A stretch of 7,609 bases of DNA from IMG/VR virus record IMGVR_UViG_2693429748_000010, one strand, 5' to 3'. Both the position numbers and the translations under genes were made by a program. The stretch comes from a virus. Its lineage: Duplodnaviria; Heunggongvirae; Uroviricota; Caudoviricetes. Shown piece by piece: positions 2,611-7,609 of this stretch; position 1 is the stretch's first letter, and each line of letters opens with the position of its first letter. The notes below the pieces were generated by a model. The model was not told the DNA's origin. It saw only the letters and a list, made by a program, of their open reading frames with translations, and did not search any database.

Positions 2611-2630
2611 CAAAAACCCGCCGAAGCGNC
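2611..2630 (-). terminator. Rho-independent terminator whose 5' stem arm is formed by the tRNA 3' end
   Basis: Minus-strand RNA GCCGC-TTCG-GCGGG followed by TTTTTGTTTTTATTTTC, assuming N at 2629 is G. The intact version (CCCGC-TTCG-GCGGG-TTTTT) is at 6138..6156. Confidence 0.45.
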
Positions 2631-2700
2631 CCTTGCTGGACTTGAACCAGCGACCTGGCGATTATGAGTCGCTCGCTCTGACCAACTGAGCTAAAGGGCC
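2627..2700 (-). tRNA. tRNA with CAU anticodon, most likely tRNA-Ile2 (lysidine) type; no encoded CCA
   Basis: Manual fold of minus-strand GGCCCTT-TA-GCTC-AGTTGGTCA-GAGC-G-AGCGA-CTCATAA-TCGCC-AGGTC-GCTGG-TTCAAGT-CCAGC-AAGGG[N]C-G: 7 bp acceptor stem (needs N2629=G), 4 bp D stem, 5 bp T stem with TTCAAGT loop, anticodon loop CT-CAT-AA. Closely resembles E. coli ileX as I recall it. One A-C mismatch at the top of the anticodon stem. Confidence 0.75.
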
Positions 2701-2788
2701 GGAGGCAGAATAATAACCATATGTCATCACATCTGCAAACTCATCTGACCACCAGCACGTTTAACGTCCTGTGCCGTTTTTCAGGTAT

Positions 2789-2810
2789 AAAAAAACCCGC
2801 ATAAAGCGGG
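2789..2810 (-). terminator. Rho-independent terminator, candidate tR' of the Q82-like late region
   Basis: Minus-strand CCCGC-TTTAT-GCGGG followed by TTTTTTT, about 80 nt downstream of the Q-like stop. Confidence 0.55.
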
Positions 2811-2871
2811 CTCTTTCAAATGTCCATGTCTGCTATTCGCCTCGCGGTACAGCTTTGCGAAGCGTACAAGA

Positions 2872-2900
2872 ATTGAAGCAGTTTTTACGTCAAAAAGCAA
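2872..2900 (-). promoter_or_regulatory. Candidate late promoter (PR'-like) overlapping the 3' end of the Q-like gene
   Basis: Minus-strand TTGCTT (2900..2895), 17 nt spacer, TGc-TTCAAT extended -10 (2877..2872). Hexamer-level guess only; a TTGACG hexamer at 2893..2888 overlaps the Q stop codon. Confidence 0.25.
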
Positions 2901-3444
2901 TAACTTTTTTCTCTATACCAAAAGCCATAACCATTGGTTTGTACAAAATAAATTCTGCCACCTTTAGCCAATGCTCAATGCGTCTTTCACAGGTTCTTAA
3001 ACTCCATTTCGGGTGTGCATCATTCAGCAGTTCAGCCATTTTGCGTTTGGTCATCCCCCGCCCCTCATACCGTTGCCGAAGGACGCTAATCAATCCTGGA
3101 TGCTCTGCCAGCACCTCACTTATGACCCGATCAATACATAACGCCTCTGCATCAGTACAATGCGCCAGCCAGCTCTTTTGCTTACCGTTAATCATATCCC
3201 GCAAAAAAGCCTCAAGTTCAGACTTGTTCAGACCTGCTTTTTTCATCCTCCGGAGCGCCTCGTTAATTGCCGTTTTTGTCAGCTTTTTAGAGGTCAACAT
3301 CAGGTTAAACATATTCCCCGTCTTACCGCCACCAATATACGACCAGCGCCCCCACATACGTAGTTTTCCCTGAATCCAGACACTTTCCAGCGTGGTGAGA
3401 CGAAGGTGTTCTCCGCTTTTTCCTGTATTCGTTGGGTAAATCAT
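2890..3444 (-). CDS. Putative late antiterminator Q, phage 82-like family (family assignment uncertain)
   Basis: 184 aa from ATG 3444 (GGAGGG Shine-Dalgarno upstream); the track start at 3564 overlaps the upstream gene and is unlikely. Motifs LESVWIQGKLRMWGRW, RDMING, LRQRYEGRGMTKRKMAELL resemble what I recall of Q82-type antiterminators. Stop/start ATGA overlap with the YbcO-like gene; followed by terminator and tRNA as in Q-to-lysis regions. Confidence 0.5.
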   Translation of the reverse strand: MIYPTNTGKSGEHLRLTTLESVWIQGKLRMWGRWSYIGGGKTGNMFNLMLTSKKLTKTAINEALRRMKKAGLNKSELEAFLRDMINGKQKSWLAHCTDAEALCIDRVISEVLAEHPGLISVLRQRYEGRGMTKRKMAELLNDAHPKWSLRTCERRIEHWLKVAEFILYKPMVMAFGIEKKVIAF

Positions 3445-3731
3445 AAATATCCCTCCTTTCTCCAGATTTCTTGTGTGCGAAAAACACCTTCTGCATGCAT
3501 CAGGCGTAATTCTTCTTTGGTGTAATCGCTGGTTTTTACCCGCCCGTCGATTAAATCGTGGCACGAGCTACAGGCAATCGCTGCCTGCATATCGTGTGGC
3601 TTTATCGCTGTTCCGCACGTTCCCGCCAGTCGGTAATGCGCCAGCACAGACGTTTCCGGATCGTGATTGCAGTAGCCAGGAATTCTGACGGTGCACATCT
3701 GCCCCCGCGCCGCTTTACGTAAATCCACCAT
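3441..3731 (-). CDS. ybcO: YbcO-like (DUF1364) putative zinc-dependent nuclease
   Basis: 96 aa, true ATG at 3731. Cys/His pattern CTVRIPGYC...AHYRLAGTCGT...ACSSCHDLIDG; size and nin-region context match YbcO. Stop TGA overlaps the Q-like ATG; its own ATG overlaps the upstream stop (TAATG). Confidence 0.7.
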   Translation of the reverse strand: MVDLRKAARGQMCTVRIPGYCNHDPETSVLAHYRLAGTCGTAIKPHDMQAAIACSSCHDLIDGRVKTSDYTKEELRLMHAEGVFRTQEIWRKEGYL

Positions 3732-4330
3732 TACGCAAACTCCAGCAGCTGCGCGGCCACATTTTCGACTTGTTCCGGAGAGGAAAATTTACGGAACAGA
3801 ATCCAGTTCCACAGCACATTCAGAACAGATTTATAAACCTGCTGAAACTCGGTTTCGTCCATATTCGCAAACGCGATAGATTTCGCCCGACACCCACGGC
3901 TACCGTCCGGATAAAAATGCTCGGTGTAAAATCCAGCCTGAATGGTTACCCACTCGCGAAAAGCCTCAAACGACTTTAGCAATGCCGTATCACTGGTTCT
4001 GCGTGTCGCAACTGTATTCAGATATTGCTCTGCGGCTTCGCTCAGAGCTGGCGTATGTTCCCGGCCTACTGATTCACACAGGTAATCAACGAAACCGGAC
4101 ACCAGTTTTCGTTCGCGAGGCGTGATCGCCCCACCGACCGGAGTCCAGTAATCGAAACCCAGTTGCAGGAGTTTGAAAAAACGCTTGTGGAATGCGTAGT
4201 TACACACACGCTTAAAGTCTGCGTGTATCCACTCACCTATTTTGATTTGATGCAGAAAATCGCAACTCTCCGGCGTCGCCGGGAGAAGTAATCCGGAAGA
4301 GGTTTGTTTGACCAGTTGTATATGTGCCAT
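3731..4330 (-). CDS. Nin-region protein of unknown function, 199 aa
   Basis: ATG at 4330 preceded by GGAGAAAG at 6 nt spacing; the track start at 4372 lacks a ribosome-binding site. Long uninterrupted frame, coupled to ybcO-like gene. Family not recognised with confidence (possibly a DUF1367-like prophage protein). Confidence 0.6.
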   Translation of the reverse strand: MAHIQLVKQTSSGLLLPATPESCDFLHQIKIGEWIHADFKRVCNYAFHKRFFKLLQLGFDYWTPVGGAITPRERKLVSGFVDYLCESVGREHTPALSEAAEQYLNTVATRRTSDTALLKSFEAFREWVTIQAGFYTEHFYPDGSRGCRAKSIAFANMDETEFQQVYKSVLNVLWNWILFRKFSSPEQVENVAAQLLEFA

Positions 4331-4368
4331 CGGCTTTCTCCGGTGGCACGGTGTTACACAGCAGGAGT

Positions 4369-4656
4369 TCAATCCTGCTCAAGATTGTAGATGAGTTTAT
4401 TCTTCAGCAAAAGCAGAAAACCAGCCTTAAAACCAATCTCTTTCAAAACCCGTAATGATGTGACAAATTCGTCCTCACGCAAAATAAAACCGTCCGTCAG
4501 AAGTCCATTACAAAAATAAAATAACACAGCACCGCTCTTCCTTTGTTGAGATTGCAAACATCTAATGCGGCAATGGCTGACAATCGCTCCATTCTCAACG
4601 CGCACAGCATAGAGGCCATTTTCACTAAAAATTTCACGCAATTCTTCGATTTTCAT
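4369..4656 (-). CDS. Hypothetical 95 aa protein; paralog of 2220..2480
   Basis: True ATG at 4656. N-terminal ~70 aa nearly identical to the 86 aa paralog; C-terminus differs because of an indel-induced frame change. Confidence 0.5.
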   Translation of the reverse strand: MKIEELREIFSENGLYAVRVENGAIVSHCRIRCLQSQQRKSGAVLFYFCNGLLTDGFILREDEFVTSLRVLKEIGFKAGFLLLLKNKLIYNLEQD

Positions 4657-4658
4657 CT

Positions 4659-4703
4659 TCAGAATCCTTCCAGATAAATAGCTCTCCCCTGTTCGGGGTC
4701 CAT
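4659..4703 (-). CDS. Candidate leader peptide, 14 aa (MDPEQGRAIYLEGF)
   Basis: Same arrangement as 2480..2527; stop TGA lies 2 nt before the ATG of the 95 aa gene. Confidence 0.25.
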   Translation of the reverse strand: MDPEQGRAIYLEGF

Positions 4704-4737
4704 CCCTCTTCTCCCTGCGCGCTACTTAAGTGAGTCG

Positions 4738-4765
4738 ATTCTATCTGCGAAGGTGCGCGAATCAA
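4738..4765 (-). promoter_or_regulatory. Candidate sigma70 promoter (TTGATT-N16-TAGAAT) for the leader-peptide/95 aa transcript
   Basis: Minus-strand -35 at 4765..4760 and -10 at 4743..4738; hexamers conserved with the 2563..2592 copy while the spacer diverged. Confidence 0.35.
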
Positions 4766-4785
4766 ATTCACCGGAAATAAACAAC

Positions 4786-4828
4786 AAAAAACCCGCCGAA
4801 ACGCTGAGAGATCACAGCGATGGGCGGG
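4786..4828 (-). terminator. Structured 3' end and rho-independent terminator of hok locus B
   Basis: Minus-strand CCCGCC ... GGCGGG enclosing an inner hairpin CGCTG-9 nt-CAGCG, followed by TTTTTT. Confidence 0.5.
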
Positions 4829-4905
4829 TTAAGTGCGGGTGCGTTGAGGATGCCTGACACATCAGAGGTGGGCGGGGATGGGATCAGCTCCCCGCCCGGT
4901 CACTC

Positions 4906-5061
4906 TTACTTCCTGGATTCGTAGTCTACGAAGACAGCGACCTCCGTCTGGCCGGTTCGGATTCGTACCTCACAGAGGTCTTTCCTCGTTACCAGTGCCG
5001 TCACTATGACGGTTAAACAGATGACGATCAGGGCGATTAACATCGCCTTTTGCTGCTTCAT
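4906..5061 (-). CDS. hok: Hok-family type I toxin (51 aa) with variant C-terminus
   Basis: MKQQKAMLIALIVICLTVIVTALVTRKDLCEVRIRTGQTEVAVFVDYESRK: first 44 residues identical to E. coli HokD as I recall it, last 7 differ. AAGGAGAAG Shine-Dalgarno 6 nt upstream of a true ATG. Track ORF is an in-frame upstream extension. Confidence 0.75.
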   Translation of the reverse strand: MKQQKAMLIALIVICLTVIVTALVTRKDLCEVRIRTGQTEVAVFVDYESRK

Positions 5062-5118
5062 AGCCTGCTTCTCCTTGCCTTTCGGCATGTAAGAGGCTAA
5101 CCTACATGTGCAAAGCAT

Positions 5119-5283
5119 GAAATTGGCCTCAGATTAATGTTAAGCGTCTTGCCGGACGCGTAATGTTAACTGGGGCTTTTCTCTATCTGCCTTTTGGTGT
5201 TCATGCCTGAAGCAGATAGCCTCAAGCACCCGCAGTCATTCTACTTACCTCGCCAATATGAAATCAATCAGAAAGGTGCCCCA
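5119..5283. repeat. hok leader/promoter repeat, copy B
   Basis: Near-identical to 6445..6604; partial diverged copy at 6626..6748. Confidence 0.8.
5238..5267 (-). promoter_or_regulatory. Candidate promoter of hok locus B (TTGATT-N18-TAGAAT)
   Basis: Minus-strand -35 at 5267..5262 and -10 at 5243..5238, about 170 nt upstream of hok; identical element at 6559..6588. Confidence 0.4.
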
Positions 5284-5288
5284 TAAAA

Positions 5289-5975
5289 TCACTCCTTCTC
5301 TTCTTTACCGTAGTGGAGTTGACCAATTTTGATAAGAGGGCGTCCCTGAGATTTGCGGTGTAGATTGGTATCGCGCAGAGAATACACACAGCCACAATAT
5401 TCCTGCTGATAGAATTTTTCGCGCTTGCTGATTTCAATCATACGGGACGAGCCGCCCTGCTTGCGCCAGTTATAATCCCAGTACACCATGCCCGGATAAT
5501 GCGCGACGGCTCGCCGCCCACAGTCGTTAACCTGCTGCATATTTTTCCAGCGTGAAATGCCCAGTGAACTGCTGATCACACTGAAACCATTTTCAGCGGC
5601 GTACAGCGCTGTCCGCTCAAAACGCATGTCAAAACACATGGTGCAACGGATCCCTCGTTCGGGCTCCCATTCCATTCCTTTGGCTCGTTCAAACCAGTTG
5701 TCTGTGTCGTAATCAGCATCAATAAACGGCACGCCGTGTTGTTCAGCAAAGCGAATATTCTCATCCTTACGAATTAAATACTCTTTCTGAGGATGAATGT
5801 TCGGGTTGTAGAAAAAGATGGTGTAGTCGATTCCCGAGGCCTGAAGCGCCTCCATCACCTCACCGGAACATGGAGCACAGCAAGAGTGCAGTAGTAGTTT
5901 GTTTGCCCCGTTTGGGAGCTCCAATTTGGGCCGTTTGAAATCAGCAACTGTCATAAATATGTTTATTGGGGTCAT
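5289..5975 (-). CDS. queH: QueH-like (DUF208) putative epoxyqueuosine reductase
   Basis: 228 aa with [10 protein letters not shown] near the N-terminus plus [18 protein letters not shown] and [11 protein letters not shown], which match the conserved Cys-containing motifs I associate with DUF208/QueH. No clear Shine-Dalgarno at either candidate ATG (5975 or 5954). Confidence 0.55.
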
Positions 5976-6034
5976 AAAAATATCAAAGAGTGTAGCATTA
6001 GAACGGGGCTATCGGAAACAGATGTGTGACTGCT

Positions 6035-6082
6035 CCCCGCCCGGTCACTCTTACTTCCTGGATTCGTAGTCTACGAAGACAG
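6035..6082 (-). pseudogene. 3' fragment of a hok-B-type gene (last ~9 codons, stop and start of 3' UTR)
   Basis: Matches 4887..4934 of locus B almost exactly; bounded by N at 6083 on one side and divergent sequence leading to the QueH-like gene on the other. Confidence 0.5.
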
Positions 6083-6137
6083 NTTTTGATTCTATTCCGG
6101 CACCATCTAAAACTTCAAACGCGTTGAAAATAAAAAC

Positions 6138-6156
6138 AAAAACCCGCCGAAGCGGG
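6138..6156 (-). terminator. Rho-independent terminator of hok locus C
   Basis: Minus-strand CCCGC-TTCG-GCGGG followed by TTTTTGTTTTTATTTTC. Confidence 0.6.
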
Positions 6157-6226
6157 TTAAGTGTGGGTGCATTGAGGATGCCTGACCCATCAGAGGTGGC
6201 GAGGGATTTCTCCCCCGCCTGGTCTC

Positions 6227-6382
6227 TTACTCCTCAGGTTCGTAAGCTGTGAAGACAGCGACCTCCGTCTGGCCGGTTCGAATTCGTACCTCGCAGAGGT
6301 CTTTCCTCGTTACCAGTGCCGTCACTATGACGGTTAAACAGATGACGATCAGGGCGATTAACATCGCCTTTTGCTGCTTCAT
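6227..6382 (-). CDS. hokD: Hok-family type I toxin, HokD-like (51 aa)
   Basis: MKQQKAMLIALIVICLTVIVTALVTRKDLCEVRIRTGQTEVAVFTAYEPEE matches E. coli HokD (RelF) as I recall it. Same Shine-Dalgarno and leader as locus B. Confidence 0.8.
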   Translation of the reverse strand: MKQQKAMLIALIVICLTVIVTALVTRKDLCEVRIRTGQTEVAVFTAYEPEE

Positions 6383-6444
6383 AGCCTGCTTCTCCTTGCC
6401 TTTCGGCACGTAAGAGGCTAACCTAGATTTGCCGTTCATAGATT

Positions 6445-6604
6445 GAGCCTCAGATTAATGTTAAGCGTCTTGCCGGACGCGTAATGTTAACTGGGGCTTT
6501 TCTCTATCTGCCTTTTGGTGTTCATGCCTGAAGCAGATAGCCTCAAGCACCCGCAGTCATTCTACTTACCTCGCCAATATGAAATCAATCAGAAAGGTGC
6601 CCCA
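6445..6604. repeat. hok leader/promoter repeat, copy C
   Basis: Near-identical to 5119..5283. Confidence 0.8.
6559..6588 (-). promoter_or_regulatory. Candidate promoter of hok locus C (TTGATT-N18-TAGAAT)
   Basis: Identical to the locus B promoter element. Confidence 0.4.
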
Positions 6605-6625
6605 NNNNNNNNNNNNNNNNNNNNN
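6605..6625. other. Assembly gap (21 N) inside the hok-leader repeat array
   Basis: Run of N flanked on both sides by copies of the same hok leader sequence. Confidence 0.95.
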
Positions 6626-6748
6626 GAAATTGGCCTCAGATTAATGTTAAGCGTCTTGCCGGACGCGTAATGTTAACTGGGGCTTTTCTCTATCTGCCTT
6701 TTGGTGTTCATGCCTGAGACAGATAGCCTCAAGCACCCGCTGCAATTC
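6626..6748. repeat. hok leader repeat, third diverged partial copy with different -35 region
   Basis: Matches the leader through the TAGAAT -10, then diverges (TTGCGG-N16-TAGAAT instead of TTGATT-N18-TAGAAT). Several point differences, so not a simple assembly duplicate. Confidence 0.6.
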
Positions 6749-6779
6749 TACTTAACTCTCCTTTTCCCGCAAACCGTTT

Positions 6780-6863
6780 TTATCCCCAGCGGCAAATCGA
6801 ATACACCACCAGCGCCACCGCCATCGCAATTCCTACCGTTGTTAATGCTTCAGGCCAGGTCAT
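6780..6863 (-). CDS. Candidate 27 aa hydrophobic peptide ([27 protein letters not shown])
   Basis: True ATG at 6863 overlapping the stop of the 114 aa gene (ATGA). One predicted membrane span with a basic C-terminal end. Too short to be in the ORF track. GGAGG lies about 10 nt upstream. Confidence 0.3.
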
Positions 6864-7204
6864 CGTAAAATATCCTCCACGCTTATCAGTCCGTTCCGCT
6901 CCAGATAACTCATCGCCTTATCCGGTAATTTGCAGTCTGGCTTCGCTTTTCTCAGTTGCCAGGTTAACTGCTTTACCAGCATGGTTAACTCATCGACCAG
7001 ACGCTGATATCCCACTGGTTTGTATTCATGCAATTTACCGGCTGGCTCTGCTGCCAGCGATACCAGTGCGATTTCCAGAACAGCAATATCCATCTTATAT
7101 GTGCGGATGATGTCATGGTCGATTGTGCCCGGTATGCACAGTCTCTGTGCTTCAATAGTCTCCTCTGCGTGAGCTATTAACTGCTCTCTGGTAAAAGTCG
7201 TCAT
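6860..7204 (-). CDS. Hypothetical 114 aa protein
   Basis: True ATG at 7204 overlapping the stop of the upstream 55 aa ORF (ATGA). Shares MTTxT(K/R)E start and an A-L-x-S-L-x-A-E-P motif with that ORF. Confidence 0.55.
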
Positions 7205-7368
7205 GCCGTAGCCCCTTCTTGATATTTTTCAAACCAGAACACAACCGGCTCTGCTTCCAGCGATGCCAGCGCAATCCGTGCCAGTTCCATTTGTTCACCA
7301 CGGGTAAGCCCGTTTTCAAGCGGGTTTTTAATGAACAATTCAATACGTTCTTTGGTAATAGTGGTCAT
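7201..7368 (-). CDS. Hypothetical 55 aa protein ([55 protein letters not shown])
   Basis: Manual translation. AAGGAG Shine-Dalgarno 6 nt upstream of ATG 7368. Not in ORF track because under 60 aa. Coupled to the 114 aa gene. Confidence 0.4.
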
Positions 7369-7378
7369 GTGTTACTCC

Positions 7379-7609
7379 TTAACCCGCAGTGCTTTCAACT
7401 GATGAGGGGAACAAAATCTTTTCATCAAACCCTGCATTCATATCATGAACAGCAACACACCAATCCATCGACGAACGATTATCAAGAGCCTCCATGATTT
7501 CATCCATGCGGCGTAGGTCATACAGGTAAATGCTTTTATCGCCAATGGTGTAAAAGCCAATTTTTTTCGGTGATGGATGAGGTGTACTGGCAATAGCGGA
7601 CACTACCAT
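7379..7609 (-). CDS. Hypothetical protein, probably partial (N-terminus may lie beyond window end)
   Basis: Open frame to the window edge, stop TAA at 7381..7379, 10 nt upstream of the 55 aa start. The ATG at 7609 may or may not be the true start. Confidence 0.4.
   Translation of the reverse strand: MVVSAIASTPHPSPKKIGFYTIGDKSIYLYDLRRMDEIMEALDNRSSMDWCVAVHDMNAGFDEKILFPSSVESTAG

Follow-up and report, generated by a model that had tools for sequence, protein, structure and literature searches.

Type I toxin-antitoxin (TA) loci of the hok family are known from plasmid R1 (hok/mok/sok, or parB), from the Stx2 phage 933W and Sakai prophage Sp5 (hokW/mokW/sokW), and from the Qin cryptic prophage of Escherichia coli K-12 (hokD, or relF). 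The hokW-sokW locus works as a type I TA system and aids Sp5-mediated lysis; HokW is 44% identical to the Hok protein of R1, and its toxicity and its neutralization by Sok have been shown for this locus, a close homologue of one of those described below (PMC8621323). Homologues of hok are enriched in prophages (23% of 4,135 homologues versus 5% expected) and occur in multiple copies in many bacteria according to a survey citing Faridani et al. 2006, and post-segregational killing has not been demonstrated for the chromosomal homologues (bioRxiv 10.1101/2025.08.07.668861). Here, we describe a 7,609-nucleotide (nt) stretch of DNA (hereafter, the window) from a Caudoviricetes virus (IMG/VR record IMGVR_UViG_2693429748_000010), for which a reading of the sequence alone (hereafter, the original prediction) had proposed a cluster of hok loci within 2 kb of one prophage, comprising two complete units, a diverged leader-only copy, and a 3' fragment. 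Comparison with closed genomes indicates that this four-hok cluster is very probably an assembly artifact that brings together two ordinary hok/sok loci, one from each of two lambda-like prophages.

Contig structure and genomic origin of the window

The window, whose genes are of the lambdoid prophage type and lie on the minus strand in the list of open reading frames (ORFs), is a scaffold of four contigs joined by an n, an n, and 21 N. Contig 1 (positions 1 to 2628) is followed by a single n at 2629, contig 2 (2630 to 6082; 3.45 kb) by a single n at 6083, and contig 3 (6084 to 6604) by a 21-N scaffold gap (6605 to 6625) that precedes contig 4 (6626 to 7609). Four hok-like elements are present, as originally predicted, and they are detected as two 51-amino-acid (aa) ORFs, three leader matches to Rfam model RF01794, and one 51-nt copy, reflecting homology and not chance. 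However these elements are counted, each hok "copy" lies on a separate contig or at a contig end, and any two of them are linked by n or N only. Because the copies are on different contigs, the genome has not actually been observed to hold four of them or to hold them side by side.

At five of the six internal contig ends, the sequence exactly repeats another part of the window. The end of contig 1 (2558 to 2628) is identical to the start of contig 3 (6084 to 6154) over 71 nt; together with the n join (2558 to 2629), it carries half of the hokD terminator and the stretch between rem and hokD, and it is a true overlap with contig 3. The remaining three repeats all fall on or beside the hok locus of contig 2 (hereafter, locus B): the end of contig 2 (6032 to 6082) is an exact 51-nt copy of 4887 to 4937, the end of contig 3 (6447 to 6604) an exact 158-nt copy of 5126 to 5283, and the start of contig 4 (6626 to 6717) an exact 92-nt copy of 5119 to 5210. 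The start of contig 2 lies 6 nt inside a tRNA gene (L001 annotation and coordinates).

Taken at face value, the sequence does read as one prophage in which local duplication has packed a leader-only copy and a 3' fragment together with two complete hok loci into 2 kb, and the contig order was set by the scaffolder, presumably from read-pair links. However, all of the junctions that such an arrangement needs are n or N and not sequence, the end of contig 1 recurs as the start of contig 3, contig 2 begins within a tRNA gene, and contigs 3 and 4 overlap on a reference chromosome instead of lying apart (see below). Furthermore, two hok units side by side were found in none of 5,426 complete E. coli genomes, the fetched closed chromosomes, or the phage records. 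A correct scaffold is thus highly improbable. Candidates for the scaffolded arrangement among the 5,426 genomes were rejected; the best matches placed both hok copies on one and the same locus (1,393 bp of the record for 2,112 bp of the query).

Contigs 1, 3, and 4 together reproduce a segment found in closed chromosomes. An exact-protein look-up with the 352-aa DUF968 protein of contig 1 led to closed chromosomes of 4.8 to 4.9 Mb, in which the gene order is 76 aa, 55 aa, 114 aa, Hok, Rem, 92 aa, DUF968, RusA, and antiterminator (Q). We joined contigs 1 and 3 at their 71-nt overlap and contigs 3 and 4 at an 84-nt core that both contain, which yielded a reconstruction of 3,897 nt (i.e., 1 to 2628, 6155 to 6447, and 6634 to 7609). 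This reconstruction aligned to the closed chromosome CP064376.1 (L011) as one ungapped high-scoring segment pair with 5 mismatches, and the joined contigs 1 and 3 are contiguous both in L011 and in a second sequence (L003). Contig 3 shows zero mismatches to L011 over 6084 to 6531. Its last 73 nt (6532 to 6604) show 32 mismatches to L011 and are 100% identical to 5211 to 5283 of locus B; this tail, in which a distal leader, promoter, and upstream flank of the locus B type are joined to the hok locus of contig 3 (hereafter, locus C), is judged to be a mis-extension. Contig 4 shows one mismatch to L011 from 6633 on (at 6950), and its first 7 to 8 nt (6626 to 6633) are of the locus B type, 6633 being the same base in both types. 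Positions 6448 and 6634 fall on one L011 base; that is, contigs 3 and 4 overlap, and the true length of the 21-N gap is negative.

The supposed third leader (6626 to 6738, minus strand) consists of this 7- to 8-nt locus B-type overhang and the distal leader of locus C (6633 to 6738), and closed relatives carry an identical leader at their hokD locus. It had been described as a diverged extra copy cut by the N gap. Instead, it is the leader of locus C itself, and the gap conceals an overlap rather than missing sequence. A different account would have three or more hok loci in three prophages, with contigs 3 and 4 derived from different loci that both resemble the single locus of the relatives, and extra copies are plausible in principle, as an E. 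coli genome may have hokD-like sequences at as many as 9 places. Yet the ungapped reconstruction, with so few mismatches, rebuilds the relative's single locus from all three contigs, and with the short overhangs from the wrong copy discounted, nothing in the window calls for another locus. We consider this account exceedingly improbable.

Contig 2 matches a different chromosomal segment. Positions 2630 to 6042 are colinear with the chromosome of E. coli FDAARGOS_944 (99.8% over 3,413 nt), where the order is tRNA-Ile, DUF1133 (Q-like), DUF1364/YbcO, DUF1367, a 95-aa hypothetical protein (Rem family), hokD, QueH, a hypothetical protein, and DUF977; the ORF families of contig 2 (Pfam) are the same as in this annotation. 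Positions 4024 to 6042 match CP179977.1 at 100%, and both genomes have a single hok here, with the Rem-like gene on one side and QueH on the other. The likeness of closed genomes to the window ends at 6042, beyond which the reference goes on as TTTCGGGCGGTCTCC, without a hok 3' end. In the window, the reported 3' fragment (6032 to 6082) occupies the end of the contig instead. The resulting junction of the QueH upstream region with a hok 3' end is absent from the 5,426 complete E. coli genomes, from the GTDB species representatives, and from IMG/VR. The natural QueH-side junction occurs in 2 records of the GTDB representatives (one representative being Shigella flexneri SFBU1023) and in 8 records of IMG/VR. 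Because the first junction is absent elsewhere and the natural one is found, the 3' fragment is best read as a contig-end duplicate: the sequence is present as predicted, but its junction exists in no other sequence searched.

The two segments are far apart in closed genomes. In CP179977.1, the QueH-hok segment (1,725,374 to 1,729,039) and the segment with the 114-aa gene, hokD, and DUF968 (2,951,498 to 2,972,556) are separated by 1.22 Mb and contain one hok each, and in other closed chromosomes the QueH-hok segment lies beside modABC and the hokD-DUF968 segment beside ompW/trp. All 41 of the 41 loci fetched from other assemblies (3 to 21 kb each) contain exactly one hok coding sequence (CDS) and one 84-nt core; the corresponding numbers in the 7.6-kb window are two hok CDSs plus the fragment, and three cores. 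Similarly, 79 phage records hold 80 hok places. A cluster within 2 kb of one prophage is thus contradicted both by the n and N links and by the closed relatives, which have one unit per prophage. As for E. coli at large, at least 3,821 of the 5,426 complete genomes contain sequences covering ≥80% of contig 3. None of the 5,426 is identical to contig 3 or contig 1, and because the best matches reach only 95.2% (contig 3) and 95.8% (contig 1), the complete-genome collection could not decide the arrangement; the closed chromosomes found by exact-protein look-ups match at 99.8 to 100%.

Multiplicity itself had also been presented as unusual, on the premise that chromosomal hok genes are mostly single. 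Complete E. coli genomes contain hokD-like loci at a median of 2 and a maximum of 9 places. Because hok is multicopy and enriched in prophages (bioRxiv 10.1101/2025.08.07.668861), the premise fails.

Alternative paths through the 84-nt core

The 84-nt core is exactly identical at its three positions in the window (5127 to 5210, 6448 to 6531, and 6634 to 6717). We searched IMG/VR (2.9 million viral contigs) for exact 130-mers representing the four routes through the core, named here by the flank on either side. The route of the reconstruction (C-in > core > D-out) was found in 19 viral contigs, and that of contig 2 (B-in > core > B-out) in 17. The route of contig 3 as written (C-in > core > B-out) and that of contig 4 as written (B-in > core > D-out) were found in 0 viral contigs each. 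The crossed paths thus look like products of assembly or gap filling and not of nature. A natural mosaic origin of the B-type leader of contig 3 was also considered and rejected, given that its path is absent from IMG/VR and both parental paths are present. This 84-nt leader/sok stretch is 100% identical not only between the hokW-like and hokD loci but also in many other fetched hok loci.

The crossed contigs would be real if the two prophages had recombined homologously over the core in the sequenced culture, by an inversion or in a mixed population. Contig 3 (C-in > B-out, 73 nt past the core) and contig 4 (B-in over 7 to 8 nt, > D-out) are what would be expected of reciprocal products, and rearrangements between prophages are known in these genomes, which are rich in insertion sequences (IS) and prophages. 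However, contig 2 retains the parental B-in > B-out path over 3.4 kb, which excludes a purely recombinant genome. In addition, neither hybrid path occurs among the 2.9 million viral contigs, where both parental paths are found, contig 3 has no better match among closed E. coli genomes than the above-mentioned 95.2%, and the B-in evidence in contig 4 amounts to just 7 to 8 nt. We regard recombination in the culture as very unlikely. If it did occur, the hokW-like and hokD loci of two prophages 1.2 Mb apart would have exchanged their promoter-distal halves via the core, and type I TA loci would be recombination hot spots at which Sok/leader modules are shuffled between toxins.

The explanation that we favor is that two prophages were interleaved during assembly. 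Contig 2 (tRNA, Q-like DUF1133, YbcO, DUF1367, Rem-like gene, hokW-like locus B, and QueH) would derive from one lambdoid prophage and would have been misplaced into sequence of another lambdoid prophage, which is Qin-like. The segment of this second prophage would comprise 1 to 2628 and 6084 to 6531 and continue at 6634 to 7609, with RusA, DUF968, a 92-aa ORF, Rem, hokD, and the 114-, 55-, and 76-aa genes. The identical 84-nt core and other near-identical stretches common to both prophages would cause contigs to break there, and contig ends running a short way into the wrong copy would give the look of four hok units. The genome most likely holds two hok loci, one per prophage, each at its usual place beside rem.

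Several points weigh against this explanation. The 40-nt extension at the end of contig 2 (6043 to 6082) has only 11 nt (GCTCCCCGCCC) in common with the true continuation; such an overlap is short for an ordinary assembler error, and the explanation does not account for the extension. Moreover, just one of the four conceivable core paths is missing from the assembly; a simple collapsed repeat alone does not predict this, so that gap filling with reads from the wrong copy must be assumed. Finally, the arrangement is deduced from near-identical relatives (99.8 to 100%) rather than from the source strain.

Overall, the original observation is partly confirmed, in that the sequences are there and their adjacency and number are scaffolding artifacts, and the accompanying interpretation is partly supported, with the identification of hok and HokD right and the cluster wrong. 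The refuting condition that it named itself, extra copies that are repeat artifacts, was well chosen.

The case holds little new biology, and its value is mainly cautionary. Draft scaffolds of prophage-rich Escherichia and Shigella genomes interleave near-identical modules of different prophages, and contig ends that enter the wrong copy then mimic gene clusters, truncated copies, and fragments. Such cases can be checked without reads by looking for repeats that end at n or N joins, by rebuilding the overlaps, and by counting alternative core paths in public sequences.

The two hok loci and their predicted antisense RNAs

Locus B, the hokW-like locus, has a predicted full-length hok mRNA at 4793 to 5231 (minus strand), with GGGUGCUUGAGG at the 5' end and a terminator hairpin followed by a U-run at the 3' end. 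A hok promoter (TTGATT-18-TAGAAT; 5238 to 5267, minus strand) was predicted by a consensus scan and ends ~7 nt upstream of the mRNA 5' end placed by the Rfam alignment. The 70-aa mok-B ORF (4906 to 5118, minus strand; ORF list) contains hok-B in the same frame (51 aa; 4906 to 5061, minus strand; C-terminus VDYESRK). Hok B matches the whole PF01848 profile (E = 4e-23), and the leader matches RF01794 at 5056 to 5231 (minus strand; 117 bits). The mRNA has a predicted folding energy of -183.5 kcal/mol (z = -7.5 versus shuffles), and in the minimum free energy (MFE) structure its first ~18 nt are predicted to pair with sequence immediately preceding the terminator, in keeping with the tac/fbi fold-back. 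Compared with locus C and 933W, locus B has a 23-nt insertion (4803 to 4825) in the loop of the terminator hairpin, which is predicted to be extended and to form two stems.

The genuine part of locus C (6141 to 6531, minus strand) comprises a terminator (6141 to 6158, minus strand; terminator scan), a 3' fold-back region, the hokD CDS (51 aa; 6227 to 6382, minus strand), which lies inside and in frame with the 70-aa mok-C ORF (6227 to 6439, minus strand), and a proximal leader that includes the 84-nt core (6448 to 6531, minus strand). The reconstructed hokD mRNA (412 nt) has the same predicted fold type as that of locus B; at both loci, the MFE prediction pairs the first nucleotides (~12 to 18, differing between the loci) with sequence immediately preceding the terminator. 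Two RF01794 matches were found here on the minus strand, at 6377 to 6552 (112 bits) and at 6558 to 6738 (67 bits), for a gathering score of 59 bits. The 117- and 112-bit matches cover the full length of the model, and the third match (6558 to 6738) crosses the N block.

These results bear out the classification of both loci as hok-type type I toxin loci: both Hok ORFs match the full PF01848 profile (E about 1e-23; 81 and 83 bits, with a cutoff of 22), and the RF01794 scores are likewise above the cutoff. Members of this Hok/Gef family are small membrane toxins of about 50 aa that have a hydrophobic helix at the N terminus and a conserved Cys. The peptide of locus C, predicted to be HokD-like, is identical to K-12 HokD at 51 of 51 positions. 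That of locus B differs from it only in the C-terminal heptad, as had been noted, and this heptad is the known HokW type of 933W/Sp5 (PMC8621323). The two loci also proved complete, unlike the K-12 copy.

Although RF01794 is named "sok antitoxin," it matches the hok-encoding strand. On this strand, the match reaches from the 5' end of the mRNA as far as the start codon of hok, so that what the model captures is the hok leader; the actual Sok RNA would lie antisense to the central portion of the match. Weaker Rfam matches (isrK, rsmX, Trp leader, Plastid-ycf2, and sR55) fall on terminator hairpins or the tRNA and were dismissed as chance, being far below their gathering scores.

Alignment with sokW, which is annotated as a misc_RNA in 933W, predicts an antisense RNA of 71 nt at both loci. 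Putative Sok-B lies at 5110 to 5180 and putative Sok-C at 6431 to 6501, both on the plus strand. Candidate promoters with the sequence TTGCCT-17-TAACCT (5075 to 5103 for Sok-B and 6396 to 6424 for Sok-C, plus strand), which were read by eye and are not reported by the consensus scan, lie 7 nt upstream of each predicted RNA. In the predicted folds (-28.6 kcal/mol for Sok-B and -29.9 kcal/mol for Sok-C), a single-stranded 5' tail (15 nt in Sok-B) is followed by a long hairpin and a U tail. The predicted 5' tails (5110 to 5126 versus 6431 to 6447) differ at 9 of 17 positions, whereas the 3' 54 nt of the two RNAs are the same and the 84-nt core is identical. Because of this combination, the antitoxin RNA of one coresident locus may partly cross-regulate the other locus, or the two may be partly insulated in this respect.

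The steps by which such loci act are those established for hok/sok of R1, together with the findings on hokW-sokW (PMC8621323), and are applied here by homology. A stable hok mRNA of ~410 to 440 nt would be silenced by pairing of its 5' end with the 3' fold-back element and would become active through slow 3' trimming. The short, unstable antisense Sok RNA (~71 nt), transcribed from its own promoter in the mok start region, would pair with the leader, block translation of mok and of the coupled hok, and lead to RNase III cleavage. Once Sok synthesis stops, the 51-aa Hok peptide would enter the inner membrane and collapse the membrane potential. In a prophage, the role of such a locus would be element maintenance, phage exclusion, or an aid to lysis, the last as reported for hokW-sokW of Sp5.

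Some features of the neighboring genes were recorded in addition. An epoxyqueuosine reductase gene, queH, encoding a tRNA-modification enzyme (5289 to 5954, minus strand; PF02677, E = 2e-65), lies directly upstream of the hokW-like locus in the prophage early region, a pairing that E. coli B REL606 shares with many other genomes. The n at 2629 falls within a tRNA whose anticodon is CAT (2626 to 2700, minus strand). The last 6 nt at the 3' end of this tRNA are missing from the start of contig 2, and tools fill in these positions with bases of contig 1. ARAGORN classifies this tRNA as Met; the FDAARGOS_944 homologue, annotated as tRNA-Ile, leads an array of four tRNAs that lies downstream of the Q-like gene in the reference. 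The Rem genes and the starts of the ORFs upstream of them (2146 to 2555 versus 4323 to 4716) form direct repeats with 78 to 86% identity, which probably helped cause the interleaving of contigs by the scaffolder. Within rem of contig 1, a 250-nt stretch (2143 to 2392) is missing in 7 of the 8 closed relatives with an identical DUF968 protein and is intact in the window and in CP064376.1.

Comparison with known hok systems

Locus C resembles hokD of the Qin cryptic prophage, which also lies beside rem and ydfU (DUF968). The homology of the K-12 locus extends only up to 6396, ~14 nt upstream of the hok start; in K-12, relE/relB take the place of the mok start, sok, and the leader, and nothing is kept upstream of the hok Shine-Dalgarno region. 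Because the K-12 homology stops at 6396, locus C is the complete form of hokD, a form also present in at least 3,821 of the 5,426 complete E. coli genomes (coverage ≥80%).

The closest counterpart of locus B is hokW/mokW/sokW of 933W and Sp5. The DNA is ~92% identical over 425 nt, and HokW of 933W and Hok B are identical at 50 of 51 positions (VDYESEK versus VDYESRK). In 933W, mokW and the sokW antisense RNA are annotated at positions homologous to those in locus B. The two loci differ in their surroundings: locus B is part of the early/nin region and is flanked by the Rem-like gene and QueH, whereas hokW of 933W lies near the right end of the record and has other neighbors. The terminator hairpin of locus B is also longer than that of 933W.

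The architecture of both loci is that of hok/mok/sok of plasmid R1, with a PF01848 Hok protein, an overlapping mok frame, and a putative RNA antisense to the mok start region, as well as a long structured mRNA, for which the 5'-3' fold-back is predicted here. In contrast to the plasmid-borne hok of R1, loci B and C are prophage borne, and their sequences are distant from it. Complete loci of the hokD and hokW types are common in lambdoid prophages and already annotated, and loci B and C, judged by their gene and leader content, are complete type I toxin loci of this known and ordinary kind, each with mok, hok, and a putative sok.

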